This document shows positions 5,983 to 64,000 of a DNA stretch of 64,000 nucleotides, piece after piece. The translations under genes were made by a program, and so were the position numbers. The DNA comes from an uncultured Bacilli bacterium (lineage in GTDB: Bacteria; Bacillota_I; Bacilli_A; RF39; UBA660). The notes below the pieces were generated by a model. It did no database searches, had not been told where the DNA came from, and saw only the letters and a list, made by a program, of their open reading frames with translations. The first letter of the stretch is position 1. Each line of letters starts with the position of its first letter. Location of the stretch: NCBI GenBank assembly GCA_947631295.1, contig CANRKU010000003.1, positions 4,313 to 68,312 of the forward strand, read 5' to 3'.

Positions 5983-6524
5983 GCAGGCATCACCGTCCCG
6001 AATGTAGTGGTAGAACCACCATTTAAGAAATTATCTAAAATAATTCTTAAATCTTCATTATTTGTTTGACTAGCAATCAATCCTGCTGTTGATAAACCGC
6101 TAATAAGAGAACGCACTTTCTTTTGAAGAAGATCTACGTTTTTCTCTTTAAATAGTATAAAGTATTCCGTATCAACAACATTATTATTCATAAAGTAATT
6201 TCCTTTCTGAATATCTTGATTCAATAATTTACGAATCTGTGGATTTTGTTGATTTTGATATTGTAACTGTAATTGTGATAAATACACAGATATATCAACA
6301 GGTCTATCAGCAACTACTAACCAAAATTCATAATCAATAGTATTGTAAAAATTTCGAAGTGCAATTAATACATTATTTTGTGCATCATCATCTAAAATGA
6401 AGATATTTCTAGGAGTTACTTTCACTCCAGATACTTTTTCTTGATTAGGTAATATAATCATACCATTAGATATTGATTGAATATTAATCCAATCCTCTGT
6501 CCATTTACTTTGAGTCTGATTCAT
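5979..6524 (-). CDS. Probable N-terminal domain of VirB4, either a separate ORF or a split gene
   Basis: 181-aa soluble ORF whose stop overlaps the VirB4 ATPase start (ATGA overlap). 181+595 aa approximates a full-length Gram-positive VirB4. Confidence 0.4.
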   Translation of the reverse strand: MNQTQSKWTEDWINIQSISNGMIILPNQEKVSGVKVTPRNIFILDDDAQNNVLIALRNFYNTIDYEFWLVVADRPVDISVYLSQLQLQYQNQQNPQIRKLLNQDIQKGNYFMNNNVVDTEYFILFKEKNVDLLQKKVRSLISGLSTAGLIASQTNNEDLRIILDNFLNGGSTTTFGTVMPA

Positions 6525-18267: not shown

Positions 18268-21200
18268 CTAACGTCCACCAAATATACTGGTATCGCAATT
18301 TGTACCATTAATAGCATTATTACATCCTGCAAGAAGCTTTCTATTGTCCATACTATATCCAGTAACACTATAAGTAATAAATGAATCACTTTCCTCCGTA
18401 CCACTATTACCGTTCACATTATCTAAAAATCTACTTGTACAAACTTGCATTCCTTTACTATTTTCATGACAACTCATATTATAATCTAAATAGTTTCGAT
18501 TTCCATCATTGTTATAATCCTTTACGTGCTTATTATAATCACGAATATTACGAATATTTTCTTTCGTCAAAACAAACTCATAATCGACTTCTGAAGAATC
18601 AACTGTAACATCGTAAATAGATTTTCCTTTATTTTGAATAACTGAGGTCAAAGCATCAGGATTAACATCTTCAGCACCATAATAGAATGAACGACTACTA
18701 TTTTTCGAAATAGCTGCACCAGTTGCTGTATCATTGATGATAGTTCCCGTCCAATTAAATCTAGGATCTCTGTTATTTGGGAATACATCTGTTAACTCTA
18801 TTGGTCTAAAAATATATTGAATACCTCCTAAAGATTTATCATCATCAAATGGACAAATTAATCCACAATCATCTGGAGAAGTACCATAGAAACATTGAAT
18901 ATCTACGCTATCATTATTAGAAACTTTACCCCATTGATTCCAAGTACCAATATTCTGTAACTCAACTTTAATATTTTTCTCATACTCAGCAGTTGATTTT
19001 GATAGAGGGATAGTTTCATCATAATAAGGCCATGTTTTATAGTTATTGATACCTAGTTTAGTAGCAAAACTAGTAAAATATTTATTATAAGGTCCAAAAT
19101 ATAAATAATTTTTGTCTTTTTCAGTATCCGTAAGCTCAACCGTTGTATTATAAACTACATCTTTAGCAGAATCTAAAGCACCCTTATCATTATTAAATGA
19201 ACCATCTCTAGTAATATAAGCAGCACCAATCTTCAAATTGATTGTTCTAGTTAAAGTATAACTATCAGTAGATAACCCATCTCTAACCCCACTTCTCTCT
19301 TCGGAATTTAAGCCACTTAAATCAGTATCATTTGAAACAGCAGCTATCACAACATTTGTACCAGTATTTTCATTGCGTTTAACATCGTCCGTTTCAGAAG
19401 AATAAATTCTATTACCAGATCCTGTATTACTAAATACGGTCTGAATAATATCATTTGTATTATATTTTTCATCAATAGTCATTGTATATATTTCATTTTT
19501 AAGTTTATCAGGATCAACTTTTTGAATAGCAGATAAAACATCCTTGTATTCTAGATAAGAATCTGTTACCTCATTGTAAAATTCACCAGTAGGATCATCA
19601 ACACAATCAGTACCGCTTCTAAATACTTCATAACATTTTGTAGCTTCATCTTCACTTGTTCCATTACAACTATCTAAATATACAAAATTTACATCATGCT
19701 CGGAAGTACATGATGTAGCATCACAAGTAATGCCACAAGGCCCTTCACCTGTTTCATTGTTATGATTCTCCTGCCACCAACCAGAATTGCTATTTCCAGA
19801 AACAACACATTCGCTACTAACAGGATTTAAGGTATGTGGATTACCTCGATTTTCTTTGGTTCCTCCAATCTTTGTTCTAGAATTTTGAGCAACAAAAATA
19901 GCTTGATAAGATTCCGTATTCGTACTCTTTAAAAAAGTACTTTCTGGTTTAATAGAAATACTACTAAGTTTATTATTCTTATATACTTTTTGATAGCAGG
20001 AATTAATACATTCTTGTGTATATGTCCCCTGATCACAAGTATCAATACAATCATCAAAATCTTGATTTGGCCCAGCTCCTGATTGTCCAGTATGATTAGT
20101 AGGTCCACCCCAACACTCAATTCCATATTGACATTCATCTTTTAAAATCGGTTGAGAAATTTGAATTGGTTGACAAGTTCTTTTAACAATAGCAGTAGCC
20201 TCATAACTAAAACCAGCCCCCGCCTGAACAGCTTTCGGAGTATCATATTCTAAATAAAGTTCTTCAGTACACATTGCACTCCAATATTTACCTTCTCTTA
20301 AAACTGTTTTATATGTTGCTACTGGTGCATTAGTATCAGTCTTCTTGTTTTGAGTTGCATCAAACTGACAAGTAAAAGTATCTATAGAGGCATTATTGTC
20401 AGGATTAATGTCAGCATTTAATATTTCGTTAACTAAATTCCATTTTTCATTGATATGAGCATCAAGATAAGTTAGTTTACTTTTAGAAATAGTTTCAGAA
20501 TAACAATCATATAAAAAATTAGCCAACCAATTGTTTCTACCTGGAAATCTTTCACGCATCCATTTACATATATCACTATTATAAAGTCTATTAGATACAT
20601 TAGAAGGAGTTACTCCTTGATAATATCCTAAATATGCATTACCACAAGCACCACCCAAATCTCCTTTAAATACCAAATAATATACAGTATCAGCTGGAAT
20701 CGTCATGGTAAAAGTACTTTTTCCAGCATCTCTCTTAATTATTCTATCATATCTTCGTGGTAATCCAGTAGCATCATCTACATTACAATTATCTTCAGCA
20801 CAATATTCAACAGTAATATTATCTGCTAAACTTATATATTTTTCACTTAAATCCATCGTAATTGTATAGCTCTCACCATTTAATTTTTGGGTCATAGTAT
20901 TTTTTAAAGTTCCAGCTGCATCATTATAAGATGGATGATAACATATAGTATACGTATAATTATTACCCTCAACAGCATCAATAGCGCAAGAAGAAAGTGT
21001 AGCATTAGCATCAAAACTATTTGCACCATTACATATAGGATTTACTCCTACTCCATTTGAGCAGGCACCATTAAATTTAGAACAGAAACAATTTTTTGGA
21101 CTATTATTACCAAATACATCACTTTTGATAATTGAATTAAGTGAGACATTGCTTCCTGCCCCAGAAATATCATAAGTAGTTCCCATAGCACCTACATAAA

Positions 21201-21369
21201 TATCATCAACTAAACAAATTGTTTTTCTTCCATTTTTTTCATTAATAACAGTATCCTTAGTAACAGTAAATTGGTCCAATTCCACAGCATTCACATTTTC
21301 TATAGACAACAATATCAATAAAAAAAAGAAAATAAAAGAATTTAGTTTTCTAAATAATCGGCAATTCAT
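18268..21369 (-). CDS. Large secreted Cys-rich protein, candidate adhesin or pilus-tip component
   Basis: 1033 aa with a signal peptide (cleavage near VNA|VE) and dozens of Cys in CxC/CxxC clusters. Rich in N, G and T. No C-terminal sorting signal. Confidence 0.6.
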   Translation of the reverse strand: MNCRLFRKLNSFIFFFLLILLSIENVNAVELDQFTVTKDTVINEKNGRKTICLVDDIYVGAMGTTYDISGAGSNVSLNSIIKSDVFGNNSPKNCFCSKFNGACSNGVGVNPICNGANSFDANATLSSCAIDAVEGNNYTYTICYHPSYNDAAGTLKNTMTQKLNGESYTITMDLSEKYISLADNITVEYCAEDNCNVDDATGLPRRYDRIIKRDAGKSTFTMTIPADTVYYLVFKGDLGGACGNAYLGYYQGVTPSNVSNRLYNSDICKWMRERFPGRNNWLANFLYDCYSETISKSKLTYLDAHINEKWNLVNEILNADINPDNNASIDTFTCQFDATQNKKTDTNAPVATYKTVLREGKYWSAMCTEELYLEYDTPKAVQAGAGFSYEATAIVKRTCQPIQISQPILKDECQYGIECWGGPTNHTGQSGAGPNQDFDDCIDTCDQGTYTQECINSCYQKVYKNNKLSSISIKPESTFLKSTNTESYQAIFVAQNSRTKIGGTKENRGNPHTLNPVSSECVVSGNSNSGWWQENHNNETGEGPCGITCDATSCTSEHDVNFVYLDSCNGTSEDEATKCYEVFRSGTDCVDDPTGEFYNEVTDSYLEYKDVLSAIQKVDPDKLKNEIYTMTIDEKYNTNDIIQTVFSNTGSGNRIYSSETDDVKRNENTGTNVVIAAVSNDTDLSGLNSEERSGVRDGLSTDSYTLTRTINLKIGAAYITRDGSFNNDKGALDSAKDVVYNTTVELTDTEKDKNYLYFGPYNKYFTSFATKLGINNYKTWPYYDETIPLSKSTAEYEKNIKVELQNIGTWNQWGKVSNNDSVDIQCFYGTSPDDCGLICPFDDDKSLGGIQYIFRPIELTDVFPNNRDPRFNWTGTIINDTATGAAISKNSSRSFYYGAEDVNPDALTSVIQNKGKSIYDVTVDSSEVDYEFVLTKENIRNIRDYNKHVKDYNNDGNRNYLDYNMSCHENSKGMQVCTSRFLDNVNGNSGTEESDSFITYSVTGYSMDNRKLLAGCNNAINGTNCDTSIFGGR

Positions 21370-30537: not shown

Positions 30538-31080
30538 TTAATCTAGATACTCTTCGTTCACTTCTTGTTCAATTTGCTCTTCTGCATTTTGGATGTCGCT
30601 ATCATCTACATCATCCATAATAACTTCCCAAGGATCTTCTTCCTCGTCATAAGCGATTTTTACTTTGACATCACCAACAATTTCGATACCAAGTTCTTTT
30701 TGAACAGTGTATTCAATTTTACCATCGACAATCTCTGCTCTTGTACATGATGGTTGTTTCAAACTACGAATAATGATATCTTCATTTGTGATATCAGTAC
30801 TATCCTGTCTTGGAACATTAACCTCTTCTAAATAATTAGTGGTTTCACGCACGACTTCTGTCTTTGTATCTCCTGAACAAGAATACCAGATATTAACGTC
30901 ATAACTACCTTCGATATTGATCTTATTACCAGTTCTATATCCTTTAAAATTATGATTAATAACCCAACATCCTAAAATAGTTGTTGGCACACATTCAGGA
31001 GTTACTGTTTTGGTTGTAGTAAAGCTTTTTTTACCTTTTCCAACAACTGCTTTTGTTACAATCTCTCGAGTATTTGCCAT
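30538..31080 (-). CDS. cotE: Spore coat morphogenetic protein CotE
   Basis: 180 aa. MANTREIVTKAVVGKGKK...ILGCWVINHNFKG...IEGSYDVNIWYS...DTKTEVVRE with an acidic C-terminus closely parallels B. subtilis CotE (181 aa). Confidence 0.8.
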   Translation of the reverse strand: MANTREIVTKAVVGKGKKSFTTTKTVTPECVPTTILGCWVINHNFKGYRTGNKINIEGSYDVNIWYSCSGDTKTEVVRETTNYLEEVNVPRQDSTDITNEDIIIRSLKQPSCTRAEIVDGKIEYTVQKELGIEIVGDVKVKIAYDEEEDPWEVIMDDVDDSDIQNAEEQIEQEVNEEYLD

Positions 31081-50449: not shown

Positions 50450-51586
50450 ATGTTTTGTGATAATAATAAAAATAAGAAAGACTATCTTTCTCTATCAAAT
50501 GGATGTTATTTAATGGGACCAACAGGACCTACTGGACCTCAAGGACCTGCTGGTGGACCTACCGGACCTCAAGGAATAACGGGACCTACTGGACCAACAG
50601 GACCTACGGGTGAAACTGGACCAACTGGACCTACTGGACCTCAAGGAGAAATTGGTACAACTGAAACCATTCAAATTGGTAAAGTTGTGACAACAGATCC
50701 AGGTACACAAGTAGAAATTACAGATCATAAATATGGTTTCGAGCATATTTTTGATTTTTCCATTCCGAAAGGAGAAGATGGAAAAGATGGTATGGATGGA
50801 CAGCAAGGCGAAATAGGACCAACAGGGCCTACTGGACCAACGGGTGCTCCAGGTACTAGTGTTACTATCTTAGGTTCATATGACAGTATCGATGAATTAG
50901 AAAAAGAACATGAAACAGGTGAGCCAGGAGATTCTTATTTAGTAGGTGACAATTTATACGTTTGGTCAAATACAGAAAACACTTGGAAAGATGTTGGAAG
51001 AATTAGAGGACCACAGGGAATACCTGGTCCACAAGGAAATCCAGGACTTCCTGGAGAAATAGGACCTCAAGGAAAAGAAGGACCTACAGGTCCACCAGGA
51101 CCATTAGAAATTCCAAATGGCTATTTTGTATCTTTCAATAACAGTTATCCCGTTGGCGGAGTAAAAGTAGAATCCAATGCCAGAATACCTATTAGTCTAA
51201 AAGCAATGGATAATACTGGAATATATACCTTAGAGCAAAACGAATACTATATTCAATTTGATAAAGAAGGTGTCTACCAAATTACTTTTATCGTATCTGC
51301 TTATTGTAAATTTGATGAAAATGATACAGATGTCATTGCGATTGGTTTCAAGCAAGAAAACTCAGATATTGTTTATGCCGGTTCTAGTATTTGGAATGTA
51401 GCACATACTTCCGAAAAAATAATTGGTCAAGGAATGTTTGTAGTAGCAAGTACGGATGAAAAGTGGGAATTAGTTAATCTAAGTAAATCACCTATTTATT
51501 TAAATTCTCCAAGTATTGATGATATTACCTCGGATTCTTATTATGTAAATGCTCCAGTAAACATTATTATTCAATATTTAGGTTAA
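50450..51586 (+). CDS. BclA-like collagen-like (GxT triple-helix repeat) exosporium-type glycoprotein, apparently intact
   Basis: N-terminal [17 protein letters not shown], long G-P-T/G-P-Q repeat tracts in two blocks, and a non-collagenous C-terminal domain of about 150 aa. Confidence 0.75.
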
Positions 51587-51657
51587 AAATGACTATGTGT
51601 TTATAATTACTCCTTTTAAAAATAGAACATATATTATGAATGAAAGGAGGAAAAATT

Positions 51658-51816
51658 ATGTGTGGAGCTAATAACTTTCCCAATTTAGGAAGTGGATGTT
51701 ATCTTCTTGGACCCACTGGACCTATCGGACCTACTGGGCCTACTGGACTAACTGGACCTACCGGAGAAACGGGACCTATTGGACCTACTCATGCCCGTAA
51801 AAGTGAAAGTAATTAA
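51658..51816 (+). pseudogene. 5' fragment of a second BclA-like collagen gene, truncated by the inserted element
   Basis: [44 protein letters not shown], then non-collagen junk (HARKSESN*). The N-terminus is paralogous to the upstream gene. Confidence 0.55.
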
Positions 51817-51879
51817 AAAGTGCTTAAAATACTGATGAAACACTTTTAATATACTAATAATTTTTAAAGGAGTGAGATT

Positions 51880-52119
51880 ATGACAAAAAAGGTTGAAGAT
51901 TTATTACAATATGATGAGTTTAGAAAAATGAGATTTACTTTAACTAAAGAAATGCAAGGAATAATTATAAAATTGTTAGTATTACAACAAATGATAAATA
52001 AAGATGAAGAATTAAGTTATAAAGAATTAAAGTTATTAAAAAAAGAAAAAAATAAACTATTAGAAAATTTTGTAAAAGAGTTTCAAGCATACAACATTGA
52101 CAAAATAGCAATTTGTTAA
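51880..52119 (+). CDS. Hypothetical small protein on the element
   Basis: 79-aa ORF with an SD (aaaggagtgag). Confidence 0.3.
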   Translation: MTKKVEDLLQYDEFRKMRFTLTKEMQGIIIKLLVLQQMINKDEELSYKELKLLKKEKNKLLENFVKEFQAYNIDKIAIC

Positions 52120-52129
52120 AATAATTGCA

Positions 52130-52816
52130 TTATTTTTTTTCTTTGTGTCGAGGTTTATCTAAATCTTCTAAAACTTGTTTTTTCAAAAAATCTGTATCAA
52201 TGATATTTTCTATTCCGTTTATACTTTCTAAATTATAAATAACTGAACTAATTTCATCATAAGTTTCTTGTAATGATAAATCAAAAGTTCCCATACTAAA
52301 TAATCTATTTTTATCATAGTATCTTGTATAAAAAGTATCACCTGTTTTATCATGTTTTGCTTCAAAATAATGATATTCATTTTTATTTATTTTAAAAGTT
52401 ATAACTCTTTCTTCTGTTATGTTTTCTTTTTGTGTTTGCTCATCAAAATCTATTTTAGTTCTTTCATCTATCATTAGTTCTTCATCGGTAAATAAAATAT
52501 TAAAAAGACGATTACCAATTGATATAACATAATATGTTCCCTTATTAATTTTTTGCTTTTTACTATTCCATATTACACAATTACATAATAAATTTAATAT
52601 ATGTAATTCATCATTAGATTCCATTTTTTTTACATAATCACCAATAGAAATATAATCACTAATTGCTATTTTAAAAATATTATTCTCACTTGATATAGTT
52701 ATTTCAAAATCACTTTGTTTTGCAATAGGTTTGCTTTCAGTAGTTTCATTAGTTGTAGCGTAATTTTGTAATTGTTTTTTCTTTGCTTTTAATTTATCAA
52801 TTAGTTCACTAAGCAT
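52130..52816 (-). CDS. Hypothetical protein on the element
   Basis: 228-aa ORF, no motifs recognised. Confidence 0.4.
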   Translation of the reverse strand: MLSELIDKLKAKKKQLQNYATTNETTESKPIAKQSDFEITISSENNIFKIAISDYISIGDYVKKMESNDELHILNLLCNCVIWNSKKQKINKGTYYVISIGNRLFNILFTDEELMIDERTKIDFDEQTQKENITEERVITFKINKNEYHYFEAKHDKTGDTFYTRYYDKNRLFSMGTFDLSLQETYDEISSVIYNLESINGIENIIDTDFLKKQVLEDLDKPRHKEKK

Positions 52817-53285
52817 TGTATTTCACTCCTTTAAATTTTATAAAGTTATCAAGTTGGCAATTATAATAACACAAAATGCTCTAAAATACAATTTTACCCA
52901 ATTTATAAATTTATATATTGACGAAAGTGTTTTTTTCCTAAATTAGTATTATGCTCAAAAATTACATTCATGCCCTAAATTGTAATTGAAAAAATAATTT
53001 GTCGTTCAAGAATTTATGTTTTTAAATTGGTATTCTTAAGGTACTTGAACAAGAAAGGAAAGAAAAAACTAATTCGGCATAAGTTTAAATAGGTGAACTT
53101 ATGAAAATTACAAGTACATTTGATGAAAATGGCAAAACTTTACAAGAGATTATAGAACAATTTTTAATCATATTTTATAACGAAAATATTACTGAAAAAC
53201 AAGCATAAAATCGGCAAAAACCTTTAAAAAAATAAGAAAACATGCAATTAAAAATGTTTTGTCAGTAAGTGAAAGGATTTAAATT

Positions 53286-54869
53286 ATGAATACTAATAAA
53301 ATATACAAAGTTGGTATATATTTAAGATTATCTCGTGATGATGAGAAAGATGATGAAAGTCAAAGTATAAGTAATCAAAGAGATTATATAATGAATTATA
53401 TTATACGAAATAATTTAACGCTTATTGATGAGTATATTGATGATGGTGTAAGTGGTACAGAGTTTGATAGAAACGGTTGGAATAGACTAATTGAAGATAT
53501 AGAACGTGATCGAATTAATATGGTTATTACAAAAGATACAAGTCGTTTAGGTCGTAATATATCACAAAGTTTATACTATTCAACTGAATATTTCCAAGAA
53601 AAGAATGTAAGATATATTGCATTAACTGACGGAATAGATACATTTGATAAATTACAAAATACTGATATGTTAATGTTTAAAGCATTTTATAATGAAATGT
53701 ATGTAAAAGATATATCTACTAAAATTAAAGCAACTTTAAACTCTCAAAAAAGAAATGGCAAGTTTATGGGTGGCATAGCACCTTATGGATATGAAAGAAA
53801 CCTACCTTATGATAAGCACGAACTTGTTATAAATGAAGAACAAGCCGAAATCGTAAGAAGAATATATGATTTATTTATAAATGGTATGGGAGTTAAAAAA
53901 ATTGCTAACTTACTAACTGATGAAAATGTACCTATACCAAGCATACAAAAAAATCTTAATCGTGGTGTTAAATCAAGTATATATGGAATATGGCAAGAAA
54001 CAACCATAAGTGATATACTTACAAACCCTACTTATAAGGGAGATTTAACACAATGTCGTGAGTATAAAGTTAGTTATAAATCAAAGAAAAGAAGAAAAAA
54101 TGATAAAAAAAATTGGATTATAGCCAAAGGAGCTTGTCCCGCTATCATTGATGAAGAAACTTTTAATATCGTTCAAGATATGTACTCTAAAAATAAAAAT
54201 AGAACTGATAACTCACTAGAATATCTTTTAAGGGGCTTTTTAGTTTGTAAAGAGTGTGGGCATACCATTTCAATAGGTCAAGCGAAATGGTCTTGTAATG
54301 GAGTTAAGAAAATAAAAAACATTTGTTATTGCAACTTTTGGAAAAAGTTTTCAAGATATAATGTATGTACTCCCCATAAAATTGATTATAATGAGTTAGA
54401 AACTGAAATATTAAAAGATATTAGAAAGAAATGTAAATCATATTTAAAGACAAGTAATTTTGAAGATTTACTAAAAAACAATGATAAAATGAATAAGATA
54501 CAATTAGATTTAGAAAAACAACTAACTAAAATTAAAAATGATATAAAAGAGCAAACAATTTTTGTTGATAAACTATATAAAGATAAGTTAAAAGGTATAA
54601 TTGATGAAGAAATGTTTAGAAGACAATATAATAACCTAACAACTGAAACATTAAACTTAAAGAAAAAAGCAAACGAAATTGAAACAAAATTATATGCAAT
54701 TAAAAATAAGGTGGCTAATAAAGATAATATGAGATATACAAGCATAATTAAAGAGTTTTTATCTTTAAATAAACCTAGCAAAAAACTTTTATCATCACTA
54801 ATTGACAAAATAGTGATAGATGAAGAACAAAATGTTAATATATGTTATAAAATAAAACCATTATATTAA
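53286..54869 (+). CDS. Large serine recombinase (resolvase catalytic domain, recombinase domain and zinc-ribbon/coiled-coil)
   Basis: N-terminal IYKVGIYLRLSRDDEKDDESQSISNQRDY with the catalytic Ser. Cys cluster CKECGH...CNGVKKIKNICYC. Coiled-coil C-terminus. 527 aa. Confidence 0.85.
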   Translation: MNTNKIYKVGIYLRLSRDDEKDDESQSISNQRDYIMNYIIRNNLTLIDEYIDDGVSGTEFDRNGWNRLIEDIERDRINMVITKDTSRLGRNISQSLYYSTEYFQEKNVRYIALTDGIDTFDKLQNTDMLMFKAFYNEMYVKDISTKIKATLNSQKRNGKFMGGIAPYGYERNLPYDKHELVINEEQAEIVRRIYDLFINGMGVKKIANLLTDENVPIPSIQKNLNRGVKSSIYGIWQETTISDILTNPTYKGDLTQCREYKVSYKSKKRRKNDKKNWIIAKGACPAIIDEETFNIVQDMYSKNKNRTDNSLEYLLRGFLVCKECGHTISIGQAKWSCNGVKKIKNICYCNFWKKFSRYNVCTPHKIDYNELETEILKDIRKKCKSYLKTSNFEDLLKNNDKMNKIQLDLEKQLTKIKNDIKEQTIFVDKLYKDKLKGIIDEEMFRRQYNNLTTETLNLKKKANEIETKLYAIKNKVANKDNMRYTSIIKEFLSLNKPSKKLLSSLIDKIVIDEEQNVNICYKIKPLY

Positions 54870-54921
54870 GCAAAAATGGTTAAAAAATAGTTTACACTTT
54901 CACTTATAGTTGTATGAACCG

Positions 54922-55421
54922 GACCTATTGGACCAACTGGGCCTACTGGAGAAACGGGACCTACTGGACCTACTGGAGTAAATTTAGCTGCATATGGTGG
55001 CTTATACGCTAATACTCAACAAACAGAACCTCTATCAGATACAAGTCCAGTACCAATAGATTTAGGAAATAATATGCCTAGTGCTAGTGTAGAATATACT
55101 CCTGAAAACAGTATTACGATATCAGAAACTGGTGTTTATGAAATTGATTATTATGCAACGATATCAACAGAAGCTCAGGCAAATACAATTACGATGGCTG
55201 TAAGAAATGGTACAGAAAATATACCATCAACTGAAGTTGCCATCACAACAGGAAATAGTAATACTTTTACATATAGTGGTAGTACTATTGTTGATTTAAC
55301 AGAAGGCGATATTATTGATATGGCTGGTACTCCATCAACAGGTTCAGGTAATCTTGTAATTGGAAGTACAACATCAGACAGTGTAGGTGCACTACTTACA
55401 GTTAAAAAAATTAGCGAATAA
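54922..55421 (+). pseudogene. 3' fragment of the interrupted BclA-like gene (collagen repeats plus BclA-type C-terminal domain)
   Basis: [19 protein letters not shown] then VNLAAYGGLYANTQQ... A beta-rich C-terminal domain of about 135 aa, in the same frame as the listed ORF 55074..55421. There is no start codon of its own. Confidence 0.55.
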
Positions 55422-57023: not shown

Positions 57024-57055
57024 TGACAAAATATTTAACCCCCTAGGTATTTTGA
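57024..57055. repeat. 32-bp perfect direct repeat, copy 1 (TGACAAAATATTTAACCCCCTAGGTATTTTGA)
   Basis: Identical to 62420..62451. Similarity extends about 12 bp further upstream (ctattttttgctc vs cctattttgttta). Confidence 0.8.
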
Positions 57056-57288
57056 TAAGTTTATCAAAATCACATAGGAGGTTATTCTTTTATATCAATA
57101 TTCGAAAAATTCGAATAGATTTGTCACTGGTGCGAGTGTCGTAGATATCTACAACTCTTACACAAGTACGAATGATATAAATATCACTCACTAATTAAAT
57201 TATATCATCTTTTTATCAATAAGAAGCATTTATTTTTCATTTAACAAAAAATATTTATTCATTTACTGATAAAATTGATAAATACAAT

Positions 57289-57507
57289 TTAATACAAAAC
57301 ATCTTTTCTAGTATATGGCGAGGTAGTTTCTTCACCAACATTACCATTATCATTTTTATAATATCTTTCACATCTATTACAATATAAAGTTTTACCACTA
57401 GGCATTAAAAATGTAAGTGGTTCATAACAATTAGGACATTTTAATATATTTTTCTTTTTCGTTGCATTTTCTACTGTCTCTTTTTGATTATTATTTAATT
57501 CATTCAT
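57289..57507 (-). CDS. Small zinc-ribbon protein
   Basis: CPNC...CNRC four-Cys ribbon. 72 aa. Confidence 0.4.
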   Translation of the reverse strand: MNELNNNQKETVENATKKKNILKCPNCYEPLTFLMPSGKTLYCNRCERYYKNDNGNVGEETTSPYTRKDVLY

Positions 57508-57525
57508 ATTTATACCTCCTATTTT

Positions 57526-58419
57526 TTAACCATCTATAGAAATGTATGATAGTTCTAATCCATATAATTCAATAGTAATTAAATGATCGTCTAATTTATT
57601 GTTTAAATAGGTTAACTCACCGCAATTAACTTTACTAACATAAATAGTTGGTTTTCCTATTTTCTCAATAATTTCATCTTTTGTATGAGTTTTAACATAC
57701 CATTCATCTTTTTCAAATTTTTCAAATAAATGATTTATTACTCTATCTTTGTTTTTAAAATAATATTCTATTATTTCATCAGCATAATTAGTGAGTTCCT
57801 CTTTTACTTCATCAGCTGTAATAATAACTTTTAAACCTTTATACTTATATTCAAAGCCGTTTTTTGTTTTATAGACAGAATCATCATATAATTCTTTTAT
57901 AAAAGTATTCCAATCATCAGCAATTATATCAAAAGTATCTGCTTCGTGATTATAAATCCCTATTTTATTTGTTTCTCTTTCAAAACATAAAGTATCACCA
58001 AATTCTAATTCAGCAAAAGGTATAAGTTTATCTTTCAATTCAGAATCAAAACTTTGAAATTTTAAAATATAAGTTTTGCTATTGGGATCAATTGAATAGA
58101 AGTATCTAACTAATTTTTCTGTTCCATTTAATAGTCCTAAAATATTTTTTTCAGGTTTTAATGATGGATGTTTTAATAAGTAATCTTTGTATTCATTTAC
58201 AAAAGTATAATTAATTTCTTTTTCAACATTATTAATATATTCTAATATTCCAGAATCTAAGTTTTCTATTTTTTTATCAATACTTTTTAAAATTTCTTCC
58301 GTTTCTTCATTTGACACATTTAATTTTTTTAATTTATCTTGGTCCTTATTCGATAGAGCATCTATTATTTGTCTCACTCTTGGAACTGATTTTGAAAGTT
58401 CTGATTTATTATTTTTCAT
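57526..58419 (-). CDS. Hypothetical protein, possibly SMI1/KNR4 (SUKH)-like
   Basis: 297 aa. The SUKH resemblance is weak (EKEINYTFVNEYKDYLLKH; DDWNTFIKELYDD). Confidence 0.35.
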   Translation of the reverse strand: MKNNKSELSKSVPRVRQIIDALSNKDQDKLKKLNVSNEETEEILKSIDKKIENLDSGILEYINNVEKEINYTFVNEYKDYLLKHPSLKPEKNILGLLNGTEKLVRYFYSIDPNSKTYILKFQSFDSELKDKLIPFAELEFGDTLCFERETNKIGIYNHEADTFDIIADDWNTFIKELYDDSVYKTKNGFEYKYKGLKVIITADEVKEELTNYADEIIEYYFKNKDRVINHLFEKFEKDEWYVKTHTKDEIIEKIGKPTIYVSKVNCGELTYLNNKLDDHLITIELYGLELSYISIDG

Positions 58420-58436
58420 TTTTTCTTCTCCTTATT

Positions 58437-58946
58437 TTATCTAGTATAATTACTAGTAATATTTTTTTCTTCAATAGATTGTTTTAAATCTAATAATTCT
58501 TTTTTCATTTTTAATGTTTTTTTGGTATCTTTGACGGTTGATAATACAAATTTAATTGATTTTGTTGCTAAGATAATTCCCATTAATCCAATCTTATCTA
58601 TAATAAAATTAATTCCATCAAACATTTTTGTATAAACAGCTACCAATACATCACTTTTTGGCAGAGTAGAAACAGTTTGAGTTATATTATCAAAAATATT
58701 TGTTAAATCTTCTGTTCCAAAATTAGATATATTAGAATTTGAGTTTAGCACAATGCTGGCACATAGTAATATAATTGAGCCATTTAAAATTGCCTTTGTT
58801 ATTGCTTTTTGATTGTGCCTTTTATATTCTGTATCAATCTTTTTTATTTTTATAGGTATATTTTCTTCGAAATTATTGTTTTCTAATTGTTTAATTGCAA
58901 GTTCTTCTATTTCTTGTTGTGAGTAATCTTTTAATAAATCATTCAT
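58437..58946 (-). CDS. Hypothetical membrane protein
   Basis: 169 aa with one or two TM helices (AILNGSIILLCASIVL; GLMGIILATKSIKFVL). Confidence 0.35.
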   Translation of the reverse strand: MNDLLKDYSQQEIEELAIKQLENNNFEENIPIKIKKIDTEYKRHNQKAITKAILNGSIILLCASIVLNSNSNISNFGTEDLTNIFDNITQTVSTLPKSDVLVAVYTKMFDGINFIIDKIGLMGIILATKSIKFVLSTVKDTKKTLKMKKELLDLKQSIEEKNITSNYTR

Positions 58947-58947
58947 A

Positions 58948-59169
58948 TTACATATTCTGGCTTTCTTGAAATTTTGTTAATAATAACTGAAGAAATTCAC
59001 CATCATTTATAGTAGTTAACGTATCATTTTCAAGTAAGCATACAGCAACACCAGATATACCATCTTTTGTCACTAAGTAAACGTAATTTTTTCCATCAAT
59101 TTGAATTTGATTGATAACTATATATTCTTTTCCATTGCTTAATGTTAATAAATCACCTTTATTTAACAT
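58948..59169 (-). CDS. Hypothetical small protein
   Basis: 73-aa ORF, translationally coupled to its neighbours. Confidence 0.3.
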   Translation of the reverse strand: MLNKGDLLTLSNGKEYIVINQIQIDGKNYVYLVTKDGISGVAVCLLENDTLTTINDGEFLQLLLTKFQESQNM

Positions 59170-59662
59170 ATTTGCCTCCTTCTAATTTTTCATTACTTTG
59201 TTCCAATAATAATTGATTATCTAATTCATCATCATCAACAGAAGAAATAATTTCATAATCCTTTACTTCAATTATTCCCATTAATTCATCTTGTTTTGTT
59301 TTTAAATTTTCTAACTTATTTTCTAATGATTTTTTTCTTATTTTATAACTAAAGGAATTCCCTAAATGTAAAGAACTTGATAATGCAGAAATTGCAGCTC
59401 CTATGGGTCCTATCATTTCGATAGCTGAATCAGCAAAAGTTGGAGGATTGCTAGCTGTCAAATTACATATATAAGTTGCTAATGCAATTCCCAATGCTAG
59501 TACACCATCTTTAATTGCTTCTTTAACATCTTGTTTTCTATAAGTCTTGTAATTTTTATCTATACTATTTATTCTTAATGAAGTTTCCCAAATTTCTAAC
59601 CTAATTTCATCTTTTTCATTTAAGGAATCCTGATTATTTAAATTAATTCTCTTATTAAACAT
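59159..59662 (-). CDS. Hypothetical membrane protein
   Basis: 167 aa. Central TM/amphipathic region ALGIALATYICNLTASNPP. Confidence 0.35.
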   Translation of the reverse strand: MFNKRINLNNQDSLNEKDEIRLEIWETSLRINSIDKNYKTYRKQDVKEAIKDGVLALGIALATYICNLTASNPPTFADSAIEMIGPIGAAISALSSSLHLGNSFSYKIRKKSLENKLENLKTKQDELMGIIEVKDYEIISSVDDDELDNQLLLEQSNEKLEGGKYVK

Positions 59663-59874
59663 AAATTACTTTCTCCTATAATTGTTTTCTTCAGGTGTAT
59701 AATCATTATAACAATTATCAGAATTTTCTGCTAACGATTCGTCTTTATTTTTTATGATATTCTCATAATCCTGATAATAATTGTCATTATTATTATTTGA
59801 ACTTTGATCTTCATTGATATTCATAGTTGCATCATTAATATAAATATCATAAGCATTGTCATCTTTTTTATCCA

Positions 59875-60933
59875 TTACATCACCCTTCTTCCAGTGTGCT
59901 CAACAGTTTCAATATGTTCATTATCAAGATTATTTGCATCAGTGTTATCACTAAAAATTGCTTCTAAATCTAAAAATTCTGCATTTTCTTTTTTCATTTG
60001 CTCAATTCTTTTTTTAAAAGAATACAATTCTTCTTTTTTAGGATTAATTGAATCTTCTATAAGATGCTCTTGTTCAACTTTTGGGCTTAATGCACTTAAT
60101 TGTTGATTATTTTGATCTAATGCTTGAACACCAATTAATTTGTTTTTTATTATCCTATATTGTTGATGGTTATATTCTACAACTAACTTTTTCCAATCTT
60201 CATATTCTTTAATTACATTTAAAGTTCTAGGATTATTATTAAAATTGGGATTATCTTTTATTACCAAAATATATTTTAAATATTCGCTCATTCTTTCAGT
60301 ATTAGATAATATTTGATTTTTCATTTGTTCTATTTCTTCAGGTGTTTTTTCAGGGATATCCATTTCAACTAAATTAGCAATATATTCTTTTCCGTATTTT
60401 TTATCGGATGTTATATTAGTTTCAGTAATTTGTATTTTTGATGGAACAAACAATATTTCATCTTCAAATCCACCAAGCTCATTTTCAATATTAATCCATG
60501 GTACATTACTATTAATAAATAATACTGCTTTGTCTGTATCATCAGCAATATTGCTTCCTTTGTTAAATGTCCTAGAAAATGTTAAAGTCTGATTTATATT
60601 TGTAGTTGCTGATAAAAATGAACCAGTTGTATTATTCATTGATTCTATTAATGATTGCTTTGTTCCTCTATATAATTGTTTATTAGGCTTTTGACTTCCA
60701 TTTCTTACATATGATTTTATGATAGCAGAATACAAATTTTTAATATCATTCAAAGATTTTTCCATTAAATCTTTAGTCATAAAGGGATAATCTTTTCCAT
60801 TTCGACTATTAATTCTAATTTCACTTTCTATTCCTTCCCTCAATAAAGTATTTATTATTTTAAAGTCATTATCTTGATATCGTTCGATAGAGGATATTTC
60901 ATCACTTGTTAATTGATAATCCATTAGTATCAC
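59875..60933 (-). CDS. Putative mono-ADP-ribosyltransferase (R-S-E class)-like protein
   Basis: Ordered motifs LYRGTK (Arg), SFLSATTN (STS-like) and GGFEDEILF (ExE-like) in the N-terminal 170 aa. 352 aa total. Confidence 0.4.
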   Translation of the reverse strand: MILMDYQLTSDEISSIERYQDNDFKIINTLLREGIESEIRINSRNGKDYPFMTKDLMEKSLNDIKNLYSAIIKSYVRNGSQKPNKQLYRGTKQSLIESMNNTTGSFLSATTNINQTLTFSRTFNKGSNIADDTDKAVLFINSNVPWINIENELGGFEDEILFVPSKIQITETNITSDKKYGKEYIANLVEMDIPEKTPEEIEQMKNQILSNTERMSEYLKYILVIKDNPNFNNNPRTLNVIKEYEDWKKLVVEYNHQQYRIIKNKLIGVQALDQNNQQLSALSPKVEQEHLIEDSINPKKEELYSFKKRIEQMKKENAEFLDLEAIFSDNTDANNLDNEHIETVEHTGRRVM

Positions 60934-60998
60934 TTCCTATTATATTTTACCACAATTTTGTAAATACTTATAGATGCTTTACATATTTTTAATAAACT

Positions 60999-62381
60999 TT
61001 ACAAACTCATTTCAAAATCATCTTTTTCTTTGCCATTATCATGTTCATTAGCAAACTTATAGTCATCTTTAATATCTTCTATTGTTTCATCACCAAATAT
61101 TCCATGTTCATATAGTTCTTTTGAAAAATGCATATAATCTTCTCGATCTTTTTCTTTTCCAAATATTCTTTTCTTGATAAAACTAACCAATCTATCAAAT
61201 AAATTTTCAAAATAATTGATAGTTCTTTTTAATTTAGAGTTATCTTCTTTAAGGTCATGAATTTCATCTTTTTGTTTATCAATCTTCTTCTTTAATGATT
61301 TAACTTTAATATTTAAAGCATCATTATTTTCAGTTAGTATTTTAATTTTTTCTCTATTTTCTTTTAATTCAGTATCTACATCATTTAAAGTAATAGATAA
61401 TTTTTGCATTTTCTTATATTCATCATTAGTAGAATTAACTTGCTGAATAAAATTAACTATTTTATCTTTTTCATCTTGTTTTAAAACATATTTGTCTTTA
61501 TTCGTTATAGTAGTTTTTAAATTATCTATTATTTCTTTAATATCATTAGAATTATTATCTAATTCAAGTGATTTTTTATTGGCTATTTCTAATCTTTCTT
61601 GATTTTTAGATATTTCTTCTTTCATTTCAATATAGCCATCCATATCTTTAACATTTATATCTTTATTTCTACCTTTTTGTTTAGTCTTTAAAACATTATT
61701 TAAGCCATATTCTTTATTAAAACTAGCAATACATAATGCTCTCATTTTATCTTGTAGTTCAATTAATTTTACTTTAGTAAATACATCAGATTTACCAATT
61801 TGTTTAGACATACCATTTTTATTTTTATATTTAATAGGGACTCCTACAATATGCATATGTGGACTAGTTTCATCATAATGAATAATTGCACTAGCAACTT
61901 TAAAATCAGGTATTAAGTTTTCTAAATCTTTAACTTGTTCTTTATAAACATTAGACATTTTATGCTTAAAATTATCATCTTTGGTATCCCAATATTTTTT
62001 ATCTCCAAGTTCAATAATTATTTCACAAGCCAAATCATTTTTAGAATTATCACTAATCTTTTTAAAGTAGTCATCTATTTTTCTATCATCTCTTGTTTGC
62101 TTTGAATTATATTCAAGTCGTGCTTCTTCAAATTCTTCTTTATATAAATTCTTAACATCTTCATAAAGAGAAGTAGTCCCTCTAGCAATTTCAATTAAGT
62201 GCTGATTATCATCATATTTACGATAATTATGTTTATCAACACGAGATAGTTGCCGAGCATTTTGAATTGCATTATTTGACAAAGAAGTTGTTCCACTAGC
62301 ATTAGTTTTTGCTCTTGCTCGTGATACGTTTTTTCTATTTTTATCACTACCTAAATGTAGTGAATAAGCAAGTTCAGACAT
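60999..62381 (-). CDS. MobV/Pre-family mobilization relaxase
   Basis: AIIHYDETSPHMHIVGVP (HxDE...PHxH motif III of Mob_Pre). N-terminal relaxase domain and a long coiled-coil C-terminus. 460 aa. Confidence 0.8.
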   Translation of the reverse strand: MSELAYSLHLGSDKNRKNVSRARAKTNASGTTSLSNNAIQNARQLSRVDKHNYRKYDDNQHLIEIARGTTSLYEDVKNLYKEEFEEARLEYNSKQTRDDRKIDDYFKKISDNSKNDLACEIIIELGDKKYWDTKDDNFKHKMSNVYKEQVKDLENLIPDFKVASAIIHYDETSPHMHIVGVPIKYKNKNGMSKQIGKSDVFTKVKLIELQDKMRALCIASFNKEYGLNNVLKTKQKGRNKDINVKDMDGYIEMKEEISKNQERLEIANKKSLELDNNSNDIKEIIDNLKTTITNKDKYVLKQDEKDKIVNFIQQVNSTNDEYKKMQKLSITLNDVDTELKENREKIKILTENNDALNIKVKSLKKKIDKQKDEIHDLKEDNSKLKRTINYFENLFDRLVSFIKKRIFGKEKDREDYMHFSKELYEHGIFGDETIEDIKDDYKFANEHDNGKEKDDFEMSL

Positions 62382-62419
62382 CTATAAATCACATCCTTTC
62401 TTTAAGCCTATTTTGTTTA

Positions 62420-62451
62420 TGACAAAATATTTAACCCCCTAGGTATTTTGA
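62420..62451. repeat. 32-bp perfect direct repeat, copy 2, 39 bp upstream of the mobV start. A 15-bp palindrome CTAGGGATTCCCTAG follows at 62478..62492
   Basis: Exact match to 57024..57055. Palindrome ctaggga-t-tccctag, 26 bp downstream on the plus strand. Confidence 0.8.
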
Positions 62452-62616
62452 CGCAAGCATCAAAATTACCTTGTGGGCTAGGGATTCCCTAGAACCCTTT
62501 TAAGACTTATTCCATATTGTTTTAAAACTTCGTAATAAAACAAAATTACATAAGTCTTATAAAATGTTATCGCCACTTACAAAATTACTTCATAATTTCA
62601 TAACGTGCCACACATT

Positions 62617-64000
62617 TTATTCTTCTTCATAGAGCAATTCCTTTTTAACAGGTTTAACACCTATTTGGGTAGGAACAGGTTCTTTCATATAGATAACACT
62701 ATCATTGCTCTCATCAGGTATATAATCAAATGCTGAATTAACATCTTCCATTTGAAATTCATCTTTACCACGAATATAAATAATTCCATATCTATATTCT
62801 TTCATTTTTATATCAGGATCTATCTTACAATAATCTTCTAAAGGAAATACTCTAACAATAGCACGATTATCGTGTATAAAGTTGAAATAAAATATTCTAT
62901 CTTCTACATAATAAGTTGCTTCTTCAAAGCCAACATTATAGTATTGTCTTAATCTCATTATGTGTTTTCCAACTTCTTCTTCAGGAAGATAATTACTAAA
63001 TCTTAAATGACCCACTATATTACCAAATAATGCAGGACTTTTAACATCAATATAACCAGCATCAAATAATTCATTACAAGGTTTACAAATTGACTCTCTA
63101 AAATTGACATTATCTACATAGATATAATCATTCATCATACCTAGTTTTATATCATCAACATAATTCATAATTAGGTTTGCTTTTTCTTCTCTTGTGTAAT
63201 CTTTCCAAGTTTTAGTTTTTTCTTTGTATTCTTTTTCTAACTTAACTTTATTGATATAATCAATATCTCTTTTTAGAAGAATGTCCTGTGGAGTAAAGTT
63301 TAGTTCCTCGCTAGTTTCAGTATCATTTAATTCATCTTTTAACTTGTTGATAGCATCTTCAACTATTTTCTTTTCAGCATTATATTCCTTTAAATCAAAT
63401 GCACCCGAAATATATGCTTTTCTAATTCTTTCTAATCTATCATTTTGTTTTTTAATCTCTTTTTCTAGTTCTTCTTTTGGCTCATCAAATTTTTGTTTAA
63501 TCATTGGTAGAAAGAATTGATTAACAACACTATCATATTCAACTAATTCATCAATAAAGTTATTAAAGTATTCTTCAATAGTTTTTTCCTTAATAGTTAT
63601 TTTGCAATCATTACAATAATAGTAATAATAAGCATTTCCATTTTTCTTCGTAGTTGCTTTACCTCCTAAAATACGATTACATTTAGGACAACATAATTTT
63701 TGTAAGAATAAATAAGTTAAAGTCCTTTGATAACTTCTTGAATTTCTTTTCTTTTGTACTTGGCATTCTTCCCATTTATCTTTATCAATAATAGGTTCAA
63801 CTACATTAGAGTAATAAGTAGGATGTTTTGTCCTTTTTCCATGTACAAAATCTCCTTTATAAATTTCATTTTCAAGTATTGCTAGAATAGTAGAATCTCT
63901 CCAATTTGTTTTACCTAATACTTTTTCGCTATTTAAAAGATTACTAATTTTTTGATAAGAATAGCCATTATAATATAAATCAAATATTCTTTCTACAACA
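62617..64000 (-). CDS. Large serine recombinase, C-terminal two-thirds; N-terminus lies beyond the window end
   Basis: The minus-strand frame is open to 64000. Recombinase-domain and zinc-ribbon motifs (CCPKCNRILGG...YYYCNDCK, CKPCNELF) and a coiled-coil C-terminus. The listed 295-aa ORF is only its tail. Confidence 0.8.
   Translation of the reverse strand, partial: VVERIFDLYYNGYSYQKISNLLNSEKVLGKTNWRDSTILAILENEIYKGDFVHGKRTKHPTYYSNVVEPIIDKDKWEECQVQKKRNSRSYQRTLTYLFLQKLCCPKCNRILGGKATTKKNGNAYYYYYCNDCKITIKEKTIEEYFNNFIDELVEYDSVVNQFFLPMIKQKFDEPKEELEKEIKKQNDRLERIRKAYISGAFDLKEYNAEKKIVEDAINKLKDELNDTETSEELNFTPQDILLKRDIDYINKVKLEKEYKEKTKTWKDYTREEKANLIMNYVDDIKLGMMNDYIYVDNVNFRESICKPCNELFDAGYIDVKSPALFGNIVGHLRFSNYLPEEEVGKHIMRLRQYYNVGFEEATYYVEDRIFYFNFIHDNRAIVRVFPLEDYCKIDPDIKMKEYRYGIIYIRGKDEFQMEDVNSAFDYIPDESNDSVIYMKEPVPTQIGVKPVKKELLYEEE

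Follow-up and report, generated by a model that had tools for sequence, protein, structure and literature searches.

A BclA-like collagen gene is split within its Gly-Pro-Thr (GPT) codon repeats by a 3131-bp element encoding a large serine recombinase in an uncultured Bacilli bacterium (GenBank assembly GCA_947631295.1, contig CANRKU010000003.1, positions 4,313 to 68,312 of the forward strand). The whole 64,000-nucleotide stretch is called the window, and coordinates refer to it unless another locus is named. Comparison with related loci indicates that the element is a member of a horizontally moving family with exchangeable cargo, not a unique or domesticated insertion. Its excision in the mother cell during sporulation, with precise restoration of the collagen gene, is plausible and is the account towards which we lean. 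The split gene and the element comprise the following features.

51609..51636, + strand: sigmaK-type promoter motif AC-N17-CATATATTA, 49 nt upstream of the split-gene start (consensus match only)
51658..51788, + strand: 5′ segment of the BclA-like collagen gene, with N-terminal motif and Gly-X-Y repeats, crossover AC included; matches the N-terminus of homologue P0060
51787..51788, + strand: central dinucleotide AC of the predicted left attachment site (attL), the first two bases of a Thr codon
51789..51812, + strand: left arm (P′), TCATGCCCGTAAAAGTGAAAGTAA, directly after collagen codons
51880..52119, + strand: orf79, leftmost gene of the element, in the same orientation as the split gene
52130..52816, − strand: orf228, cargo, no family match
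53101..53208, + strand: orf35, a 35-aa micro-ORF with conserved part MKITSTFDENGKTLQEIMEQFLIIFYNEN, just upstream of the recombinase
53286..54869, + strand: large serine recombinase, 527 aa, with Resolvase and Recombinase domains
54894..54917, + strand: right arm (P), ACACTTTCACTTATAGTTGTATGA, with collagen codons directly after
54918..54919, + strand: central dinucleotide AC of the predicted right attachment site (attR), from aligned right ends
54920..55421, + strand: 3′ segment of the BclA-like gene, with the remaining Gly-X-Y repeats and a C1q/TNF-like C-terminal domain, without its own start at the junction

The 5′ piece begins at ATG 51658 behind a ribosome-binding site (aaaggagg at 51644), as found in the open reading frame (ORF) listing and by direct reading. 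It reads ...GETGPIGPT, continues into insert-derived HARKSESN and stops at 51814-51816. The frame of the 3′ piece is open from 54921 to the stop at 55419-55421. Both pieces are co-oriented and mutually in frame, and in-silico removal of the element (51789..54919) at AC rejoins GGA CCT AC|C GGA in frame. The rebuilt 210-aa ORF has an N-terminal motif, collagen repeats and a BclA-like C-terminal domain (predicted rejoined-gene junction GGACCTATTGGACCTACCGGACCTATTGGACC; rejoined-gene k-mer GGACCTATTGGACCTACCGGACCTATTGGACCAACTGGG). A preliminary description of this DNA had reported a BclA-like gene split in its GPT tract by a 3.1-kb element, co-oriented halves in compatible frames and a 527-aa serine recombinase in the insert, and these points hold. 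Its outer limits for the two pieces (start 51658, stop 55421) also stand; its inner limits are corrected from 51789 to 51788 for the end of the 5′ piece and from 54922 to 54921 for the 3′ frame. The length of about 165 aa that it gave for the rebuilt ORF is that of the 3′ piece alone, and its count of only three ORFs in the insert omitted a fourth, orf35.

Residues 2-209 of the rebuilt protein align end to end with the uninterrupted 212-aa homologue P0060, including the N-terminal motif C..N.F..L..GC(Y/F)LLGPTGP. The same unbroken layout is present in many further homologues of 178-350 aa. The joined protein matches Collagen PF01391 (E 1.2e-7), with GPT-rich Gly-X-Y repeats visible, and scores 30.8 bits against Pfam BclA_C, under the curated cut-off of 38 bits. 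An AlphaFold2 model of the 3′ piece (alignment of 27 homologues; predicted local distance difference test score 84) shows an all-beta jelly roll. Among solved structures it most resembles ExsFA (7r1m), the BclA C-terminal domain (1wck) and BxpB (8d02), at E ~1e-8 and a target template-modelling (TM) score of ~0.7 (0.70 for 1wck); the remaining three of the top six are further ExsFA/BclA entries. Identity between the split gene and solved BclA is only ~20%. By analogy with BclA, the product would be a spore-surface collagen-like protein with putative exosporium location and glycosylation.

Gene callers list the split gene as separate ORFs of 52 aa and 115 aa, the second starting at ATG 55074 with an AGGAA-like sequence 5 nt before it. 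This ATG falls after the first two beta-strands of the C-terminal domain, and the frame upstream of it is open for 51 more codons, back to the junction. As judged from the aligned homologues and the open frame, the split gene is one BclA-like gene and not two. Across the right junction, seven fetched loci on five distinct contigs (up to 60 kb; five samples) match the window at 100% identity, so an assembly artefact does not account for the split arrangement. A search of 5.8 billion proteins for an uninterrupted copy of the split gene gave, besides the truncated 115-aa ORF, nothing above 48% identity. The genomic context of P0002, the best intact homologue, is unrelated. The C-terminal domain likewise has no relative above 48% identity, unlike the recombinase.

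AC-N17-CATATATTA fits the sigmaK consensus as known from Bacillus subtilis. In a regular-expression scan of the 64-kb window (128 kb of scanned strand), the motif occurs five times on the + strand and not at all on the − strand. The same search places it at about −46 from the collagen gene of locus L008, and an equivalent in L009 was read by eye. Mother-cell expression of the split gene is predicted from this motif and from the BclA analogy.

The crossover position is a prediction from alignments of 13 right and 7 left ends. L-numbers denote related recombinase loci compared with the window, and the window is counted among the 13 right-end loci. The conserved arms stop at ATGA|AC and AC|TCAT, with GT instead of AC in reversed elements. 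By base-by-base count, the 24-bp arms form an imperfect inverted repeat (17/24 bases). The right arm, ...ACTTTCACTTATAGTTGTATGA, lies ~25-50 nt past the recombinase stop in the window and 11 related loci, and ~1.4 kb past it in L007, beyond two cargo genes. It is followed by AC and collagen codons at 10 loci (window, L007-L013, L017, L069) and by GT and opposite-strand collagen codons at three (L006, L015, L016). In the window, L006-L009 and L012, collagen codons run straight into the left arm, TCAT(A/G)C.C.TAAAAGTGAAAGTAA, which is also conserved in L011 and has a diverged copy in L013. All seven complete elements have AC, or GT where reversed, at both junctions.

From these alignments we infer an element site of the form arm-AC-arm, which the recombinase would cut at the central AC. 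The corresponding host site would be GGNCCN-AC-NGGNCC, made by Gly-Pro/Ala-Thr/Ile-Gly-Pro codons and dyad symmetric about the first two bases of the Thr codon. Orientation would be set only by AC versus GT, in keeping with the insertions seen in both orientations. The left arm encodes the tail H-x-x-K-S-E-S-N, with the stop completed by 51813-51816. In each arm a short tail, T-H-x-x-x-S-E-S-x, is encoded ahead of a stop, and truncated products of the split gene therefore end quickly. The predicted circle junction is GTTGTATGAACTCATGCCCG (circle k-mer CACTTATAGTTGTATGAACTCATGCCCGTAAAAGTG). A crossover within the 14-nt direct repeat GGACCTATTGGACC, giving a 204-aa product, was considered and rejected, since the aligned arms end exactly at AC. 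This repeat is locus-specific and belongs to a duplicated GPIGPT unit of the host gene, not to the core.

The element is ordered as left arm, orf79, orf228 on the opposite strand, orf35, large serine recombinase and right arm. Its G+C content is mostly 0.20-0.24 per 400-bp window, rising to 0.29 in mid-recombinase, and that of the flanking genes is 0.26-0.42. The recombinase carries Resolvase PF00239 (E 1.3e-22, residues 11-159), with the YLRLSRDD motif visible, and Recombinase PF07508 (E 8e-25). Zn_ribbon_recom PF13408 falls just short of its cut-off (24.5 versus 25.3 bits), and homologues carry a precomputed PF13408 match; a coiled coil at residues ~385-490 was judged by eye only. The protein matches PHROG 95 ‘integrase’ at E 2e-98, and the best solved-structure match to its catalytic domain is TnpX (2mhc, E 5e-24). 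The ratio of nonsynonymous to synonymous substitution rates (dN/dS) is ~0.1 against relatives, and by this measure the recombinase is under purifying selection.

orf35 is found at all 13 loci with a close recombinase. Twelve comparisons give differences at codon positions 1:2:3 of 17:16:92 and a dN/dS of ~0.1, which identify it as a protein-coding gene. It is a candidate directionality factor or regulator. A 17-nt block, GGCATAAGTTTAAATAG (53075-53100 region), lies just 5′ of orf35 and is nearly invariant across species. An extended −10 sequence (TGGTATAAT) stands between orf35 and the recombinase in several relatives and is absent from the window element. A homologue of orf79 occupies the same position in L006 (84% identity). 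No counterpart of orf228 was found in the related elements searched (L006-L020, L069-L071). Searches of orf79, orf228 and orf35 against Pfam and PHROGs, and of orf79 and orf228 against NCBIfam, gave no family match. Pfam and PHROG searches of the element's ORFs revealed no Mob/relaxase, resistance or phage genes.

Two genes beside the split gene serve as references for related loci.

50450..51586, + strand: uninterrupted collagen-like neighbour (378 aa), counterpart of the gene that is split in L008
55637..56722, + strand: glycosyltransferase with GT2 and TPR domains (Pfam), outside the element

The recombinase has many close relatives at 75-97% identity, and more than 100 recombinase clusters reach at least 50%. 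A 77-95%-identical recombinase occurs in 12 species of a one-genome-per-species collection, and 97%-identical copies occur on further contigs. At all 13 loci with a readable right end, in different species, the same arm abuts collagen repeats. The family inserts in different collagen genes, sometimes in tandem: in L006 (7733-~9800) and L011 (2694 onwards), a second element lies 100-130 bp after the first in the same collagen gene, and the second recombinase of L006 is 54% identical and on the opposite strand. Only the arms, the recombinase and orf35 are common to all elements, and the cargo differs in each. Lengths run from 2.6 kb (L009, L012) up to 6.9 kb (L006), with the elements of L010 and L015-L017 above 6 kb. 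Cargo by locus is as follows.

L008: Bro-N-like
L009: DUF3592 membrane protein
L012: Zn-phospholipase-C-like
L013: transglutaminase-like
Window and L069: unknown

Removal at AC rebuilds in-frame ORFs in the window (210 aa), L007, L008, L009 and L013. The rebuilt L009 protein has 293 aa and a BclA_C-type tail. In L008, the rebuilt frame is open for 433 residues (431 aa from the first Met), and the protein aligns end to end, across the L008 junction, with the product of the intact window gene at 50450-51586 (E 4e-109). By this alignment, the gene split in L008 is the orthologue of that intact gene. The check proposed in the preliminary description, for one continuous gene in relatives, is in this way passed for a sister element.

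Recombinases of at most 40% identity (L018-L068) showed no collagen flanks, so the collagen target preference is a property of the clade of at least ~54% identity. In L074 and L075, a 56%-identical recombinase lies beside a xanthine/uracil permease gene, and a near-perfect palindrome, TACACTTTTGTAAGTAT..ATACAAAAGTGTA, directly follows the recombinase stop; it may represent either an element site that has not recombined or a terminator. L074 and the collagen-inserted L017 derive from a single metagenome-assembled genome (MAG), so two members of the wider clade can coexist in one genome.

The glycosyltransferase gene also lies 3′ of the split collagen gene in L007, L009, L015, L017 and L069, and it was used as an adjacent host gene in comparisons of synonymous divergence (dS) with the window.

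L069: recombinase 0.16, glycosyltransferase 0.92
L007: recombinase 0.39, glycosyltransferase 1.17
L009: recombinase 0.43, glycosyltransferase 1.30
L015: recombinase 1.27, glycosyltransferase 1.12
L017: recombinase 1.83, glycosyltransferase 1.38

Recombinase dS is far below host-gene dS in three of these five comparisons, and the values are similar in L015 and L017. At the protein level, L069 and the window share 97% identity in the recombinase and 67% in the glycosyltransferase. The low recombinase dS relative to the host gene implies that at least some members were exchanged horizontally, well after the host species diverged. No carrier phage or plasmid was found in phage and plasmid collections, where the best recombinase identity is ~32%.

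Sister elements occupy other genes. In L078 (1061-8299; JGI 3300031555, Ga0318466_10000328) and in L079, an element splits a spoVD-like penicillin-binding protein gene. The L078 split point is QYGGTV|AAPIAKN, and its recombinase is 50% identical to that of the window. Both loci have similar arms, a GT core, an orf35-like ORF and an orf79-like first gene, the last read by eye at 1589-1810 of L078. The rejoined 233-aa C-terminus of L078 matches the TIGR02214 spoVD equivalog at E 1e-74, the next family being at 1e-27, and downstream of the gene are mraY and a spoVE/ftsW-type gene. spoVD is a mother-cell gene required for the spore cortex. An element in a spoVD-like gene would thus be expected to survive only where the mother cell excises it. 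The L078-type recombinase cluster is common, with 151 member sequences, and a literature search returned no report of a spoVD-intervening element. A 555-aa serine recombinase is encoded just upstream of the L078 element, and the spoVD-like gene may be split twice.

Further targets were seen at four loci. In L085 (ENA ERZ14864790, NODE_1652; ~1106 and 9640), the element of a 58%-identical recombinase is nested in another serine recombinase gene, at a point in the catalytic-site region (..IYMRVS|T-EDQAREGFSLPEQ). In L076 (7625-8365), L083 (9617-10369) and L084 (9591-10343), an N-terminally truncated ORF of ~240 aa (..TPSLNKSFKFQSEWPY..) directly follows a recombinase of 51-54% identity. This ORF has no Pfam or NCBIfam match and adjoins ctpB in two of the three loci; it probably represents a further interrupted gene. 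Wherever a target of the clade could be identified, it was a sporulation gene or another recombinase gene.

The host itself is, from its gene content, an endospore former. Among the spore-former markers of the preliminary description, CotE (PF10628, E 5e-45, at 30538-31080) and a CotJC-like protein of the Mn-catalase family were confirmed in the window, and SpoVS was not found by motif search. Spore-related genes with LysM and peptidoglycan-binding domains lie upstream of the split gene. The nearest genomes carry the labels ‘uncultured Bacilli bacterium’ (rabbit gut MAGs) or Candidatus Coprovivens.

Mother-cell excision would proceed as follows. Site-specific recombination placed the element among the Gly-Pro-Thr/Ile codon repeats of the BclA-like gene, and it would be retained there in the germ line, meaning vegetative cells and the forespore. 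The left and right junctions would recombine, freeing a circle and rejoining the gene in frame. This would take place in the terminally differentiated mother cell, where the sigmaK-type promoter of the split gene would be active. The spore-surface protein would then be made while the lineage keeps the element, by the logic of skin, SPbeta, gin and yin. Directionality might come from the 35-aa micro-protein, from orf79, which lies directly downstream of the split gene's promoter, or from both. CotE in the host, the sigmaK-type motif before the split gene and the spoVD-like target of a sister element lend the proposal indirect support. In earlier reports, the tested serine-recombinase elements in sigK, spsM, spoVFB, gerE and yabG are excised at sporulation (PMC5595907, PMC4191935, PMC5025042, PMC10747680).

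Several observations weigh against this proposal. No rejoined gene was found among the 5.8 billion proteins, and no circle junction matched either of two degenerate patterns in JGI metagenomes or the one used on IMG/VR. In three runs, unitig-level contigs pass through the right junction without a break or branch; this is weak evidence, because sporulating mother cells would be rare in stool DNA. No sigmaE or sigmaK promoter is recognisable before orf35, the GGCATAAGTTTAAATAG block included, or before the recombinase, and a generic scan for sigma-70 promoters and terminators performed no better than on shuffled sequence. orf79 is absent from the minimal elements L008, L009 and L012. Of the 13 loci, 10 have the element co-oriented with the host gene and three have it reversed, so read-through from the host promoter is not a general trigger. 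Among solved structures, the recombinase catalytic domain is closest to TnpX, which is not known to need a directionality factor for excision or insertion. In L012, the 3′ part of the split gene looks decayed. Simple inactivation of one collagen gene might also be tolerated, because each genome has several collagen-like paralogues.

A broader version of the proposal is more speculative. In it, a clade of mini-elements, each with a recombinase and a ~30-aa micro-protein, would use the codon symmetry of (Gly-Pro-Thr)n as a generic landing site and survive by programmed DNA elimination in the mother cell. The micro-protein would be an unusually small directionality factor, and sister elements would behave likewise in spoVD and other sporulation genes. 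We regard this extension as possible and put it forward tentatively.

The strongest rival is that the element is a selfish mini-transposon, a Tn4451/Tn5397-style element reduced to its recombination module, which knocks out the collagen gene and excises sporadically and without relation to sporulation. It would hop at low frequency between abundant, tolerant GPT repeats. This remains a serious contender, although not the favoured one. The TnpX-like catalytic domain and the ~30% identity of the full-length protein to TndX are in keeping with it, as are clear horizontal movement between species and insertion in different collagen genes, in both orientations, in tandem and with variable cargo. 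The decayed-looking 3′ fragment of L012, the collagen-like paralogues and the failure to detect an excised form in the searched collections also agree with it. However, close members occur once per representative genome despite dozens of GPT sites. MAG assembly could hide copies, and this point is qualified by the second, 56%-identical relative in one MAG (L017 and L074). In the window, L008, L009, L010 and L069, the start-less 3′ fragments have kept an intact ORF and a complete domain. A dead-end knockout of a spoVD-like gene should abolish spores, yet the recombinase cluster concerned is common (151 sequences). Confinement of the identifiable targets to sporulation genes or another recombinase gene also speaks against this rival.

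A second rival is a reversible switch, in which excision and re-integration in dividing cells would produce subpopulations with and without the spore-surface protein, a phase variation like active lysogeny. The comK phage of Listeria and, in part, yin of Clostridium botulinum are reported to behave so; pure cultures with yin contain both excised and integrated subpopulations (PMC10747680). There are documented cases of reversible regulated gene integrity (PMC7192596), and surface collagen-like proteins are described as typical variation targets (PMC13188886). Tandem elements in one gene, as in L006 and L011, would permit combinatorial states. A 3-kb circle without a recognisable replication or partition function would, however, be lost on division, and only the integrated form is present in five samples, with unitigs unbranched at the junction. 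We consider a switch improbable.

Two independent small genes, or a chimeric assembly from collagen repeats, would account for the separate gene calls, the AGGAA-like sequence before ATG 55074 and the tendency of repeats to break assemblies, but both are effectively refuted by the identical structure on five contigs from five samples, the 115-aa ORF lacking the first two domain strands, the frame open back to the junction, the match of the pieces to both ends of single intact homologues and the conservation of the arms in 13 species.

Other mobile DNA surrounds the locus. A second, Tn4451-like mobile element begins 2 kb downstream (~57100-64000), continues past the window end and encodes the following.

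57526-58419, − strand: SUKH/SMI1-type protein
60999-62381, − strand: Mob_Pre relaxase
62617, running off the window, − strand: 639-aa large serine recombinase, a different protein from the 527-aa recombinase

Three of the five contigs (ERZ27249400, ERR10663790, ERR10663793) end at 57053-57133, which suggests that this second element is polymorphic or repeated. Window positions 1-25600 hold a long run of minus-strand ORFs, some very large (e.g., 18268-21369, 1033 aa), and a fragment similar to a VirB4-like conjugal-transfer ATPase of integrative conjugative elements (5979-6524). From these genes, the region looks like an integrative conjugative element.

If excision is developmental, structural spore-surface collagen genes would be a new target class, and the elements would represent a much smaller non-phage type (2.6-7 kb versus 28.6 kb for gin). 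The range of such systems would extend to a poorly known uncultured gut lineage. A host site arising from the codon periodicity of a protein repeat would explain insertion in several genes, in two orientations and in tandem. The invariant pairing of recombinase and ~30-aa protein would provide a compact, easily tested directionality system. If programmed elimination is true for the wider clade, several late spore genes of this gut lineage would be assembled by DNA rearrangement. There is also a consequence for annotation: split collagen genes are called as fragments in MAGs, and flanking collagen repeats may contribute to the short contigs of relatives, so split genes are probably under-reported.

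Full-text literature searches found no description of a recombinase element inside bclA or another collagen-like gene, and a 2026 survey of Clostridioides difficile BclA treats ‘interrupted’ loci solely as assembly problems. The split gene shares with Bacillus anthracis BclA and C. difficile BclA1-3 a short N-terminal segment, GPT-rich repeats, a C1q/TNF-like jelly roll, an adjacent glycosyltransferase gene and a sigmaK-type promoter motif. It differs in its sub-cut-off BclA_C score and ~20% identity, and its spore location is a prediction only.

The closest described system to the element family is gin, a 28.6-kb non-phage element in gerE of Bacillus cereus ATCC 10987 with the recombinase GirC and the directionality factor GirX (PMC5595907). 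Both are non-phage elements with a large serine recombinase, and gin splits a late mother-cell gene. Both have an attachment site that is an imperfect inverted repeat around a central dinucleotide, a predicted precise in-frame restoration and apparent horizontal spread. They differ in that gin has three recombinase genes in its 28.6 kb, whereas the 3.1-kb window element and its relatives, down to 2.6 kb, have one recombinase and the 35-aa ORF. The target of the window family is a repeated, dyad-symmetric codon motif with many copies per genome, and for that reason insertions of the family lie in several genes and both orientations. Excision of gin is demonstrated; that of the window element is predicted from sequence.

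skin (sigK; SpoIVCA) and SPbeta (spsM; SprA/SprB) of B. subtilis and skinCd of C. difficile are also serine-recombinase elements inside mother-cell-only genes (PMC4191935, PMC5499854, PMC5025042). For SPbeta, a symmetric sequence inside a coding region was argued in this group of papers to be a chosen integration site, and spsM, like the window gene, concerns the spore surface. These elements are prophages or remnants of at least 14 kb, in contrast to the window element, which has no phage genes, no recognised homologue of a known directionality factor and a recombinase at most 32% identical to anything in the phage collection.

Tn4451/Tn4453 (TnpX) and Tn5397 (TndX) resemble the window element in the catalytic domain, nearest to TnpX, and in ~30% full-length identity to TndX. 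They are likewise small non-phage elements with a duplicated central dinucleotide at the flanks. A circular intermediate is expected for elements of this type, and the central dinucleotide of TnpX and TndX is GA. The window element differs in having no Mob/relaxase or resistance gene, its family has a core of AC or GT (GT also in the sister element) instead of GA, and the family targets strictly the coding repeats of spore genes. With no Mob gene and no GA core, the window element departs from the Tn4451 type in two features. By analogy, it is classed with the sporulation gene-intervening, or regulated-gene-integrity, elements, with developmental excision as the prediction.

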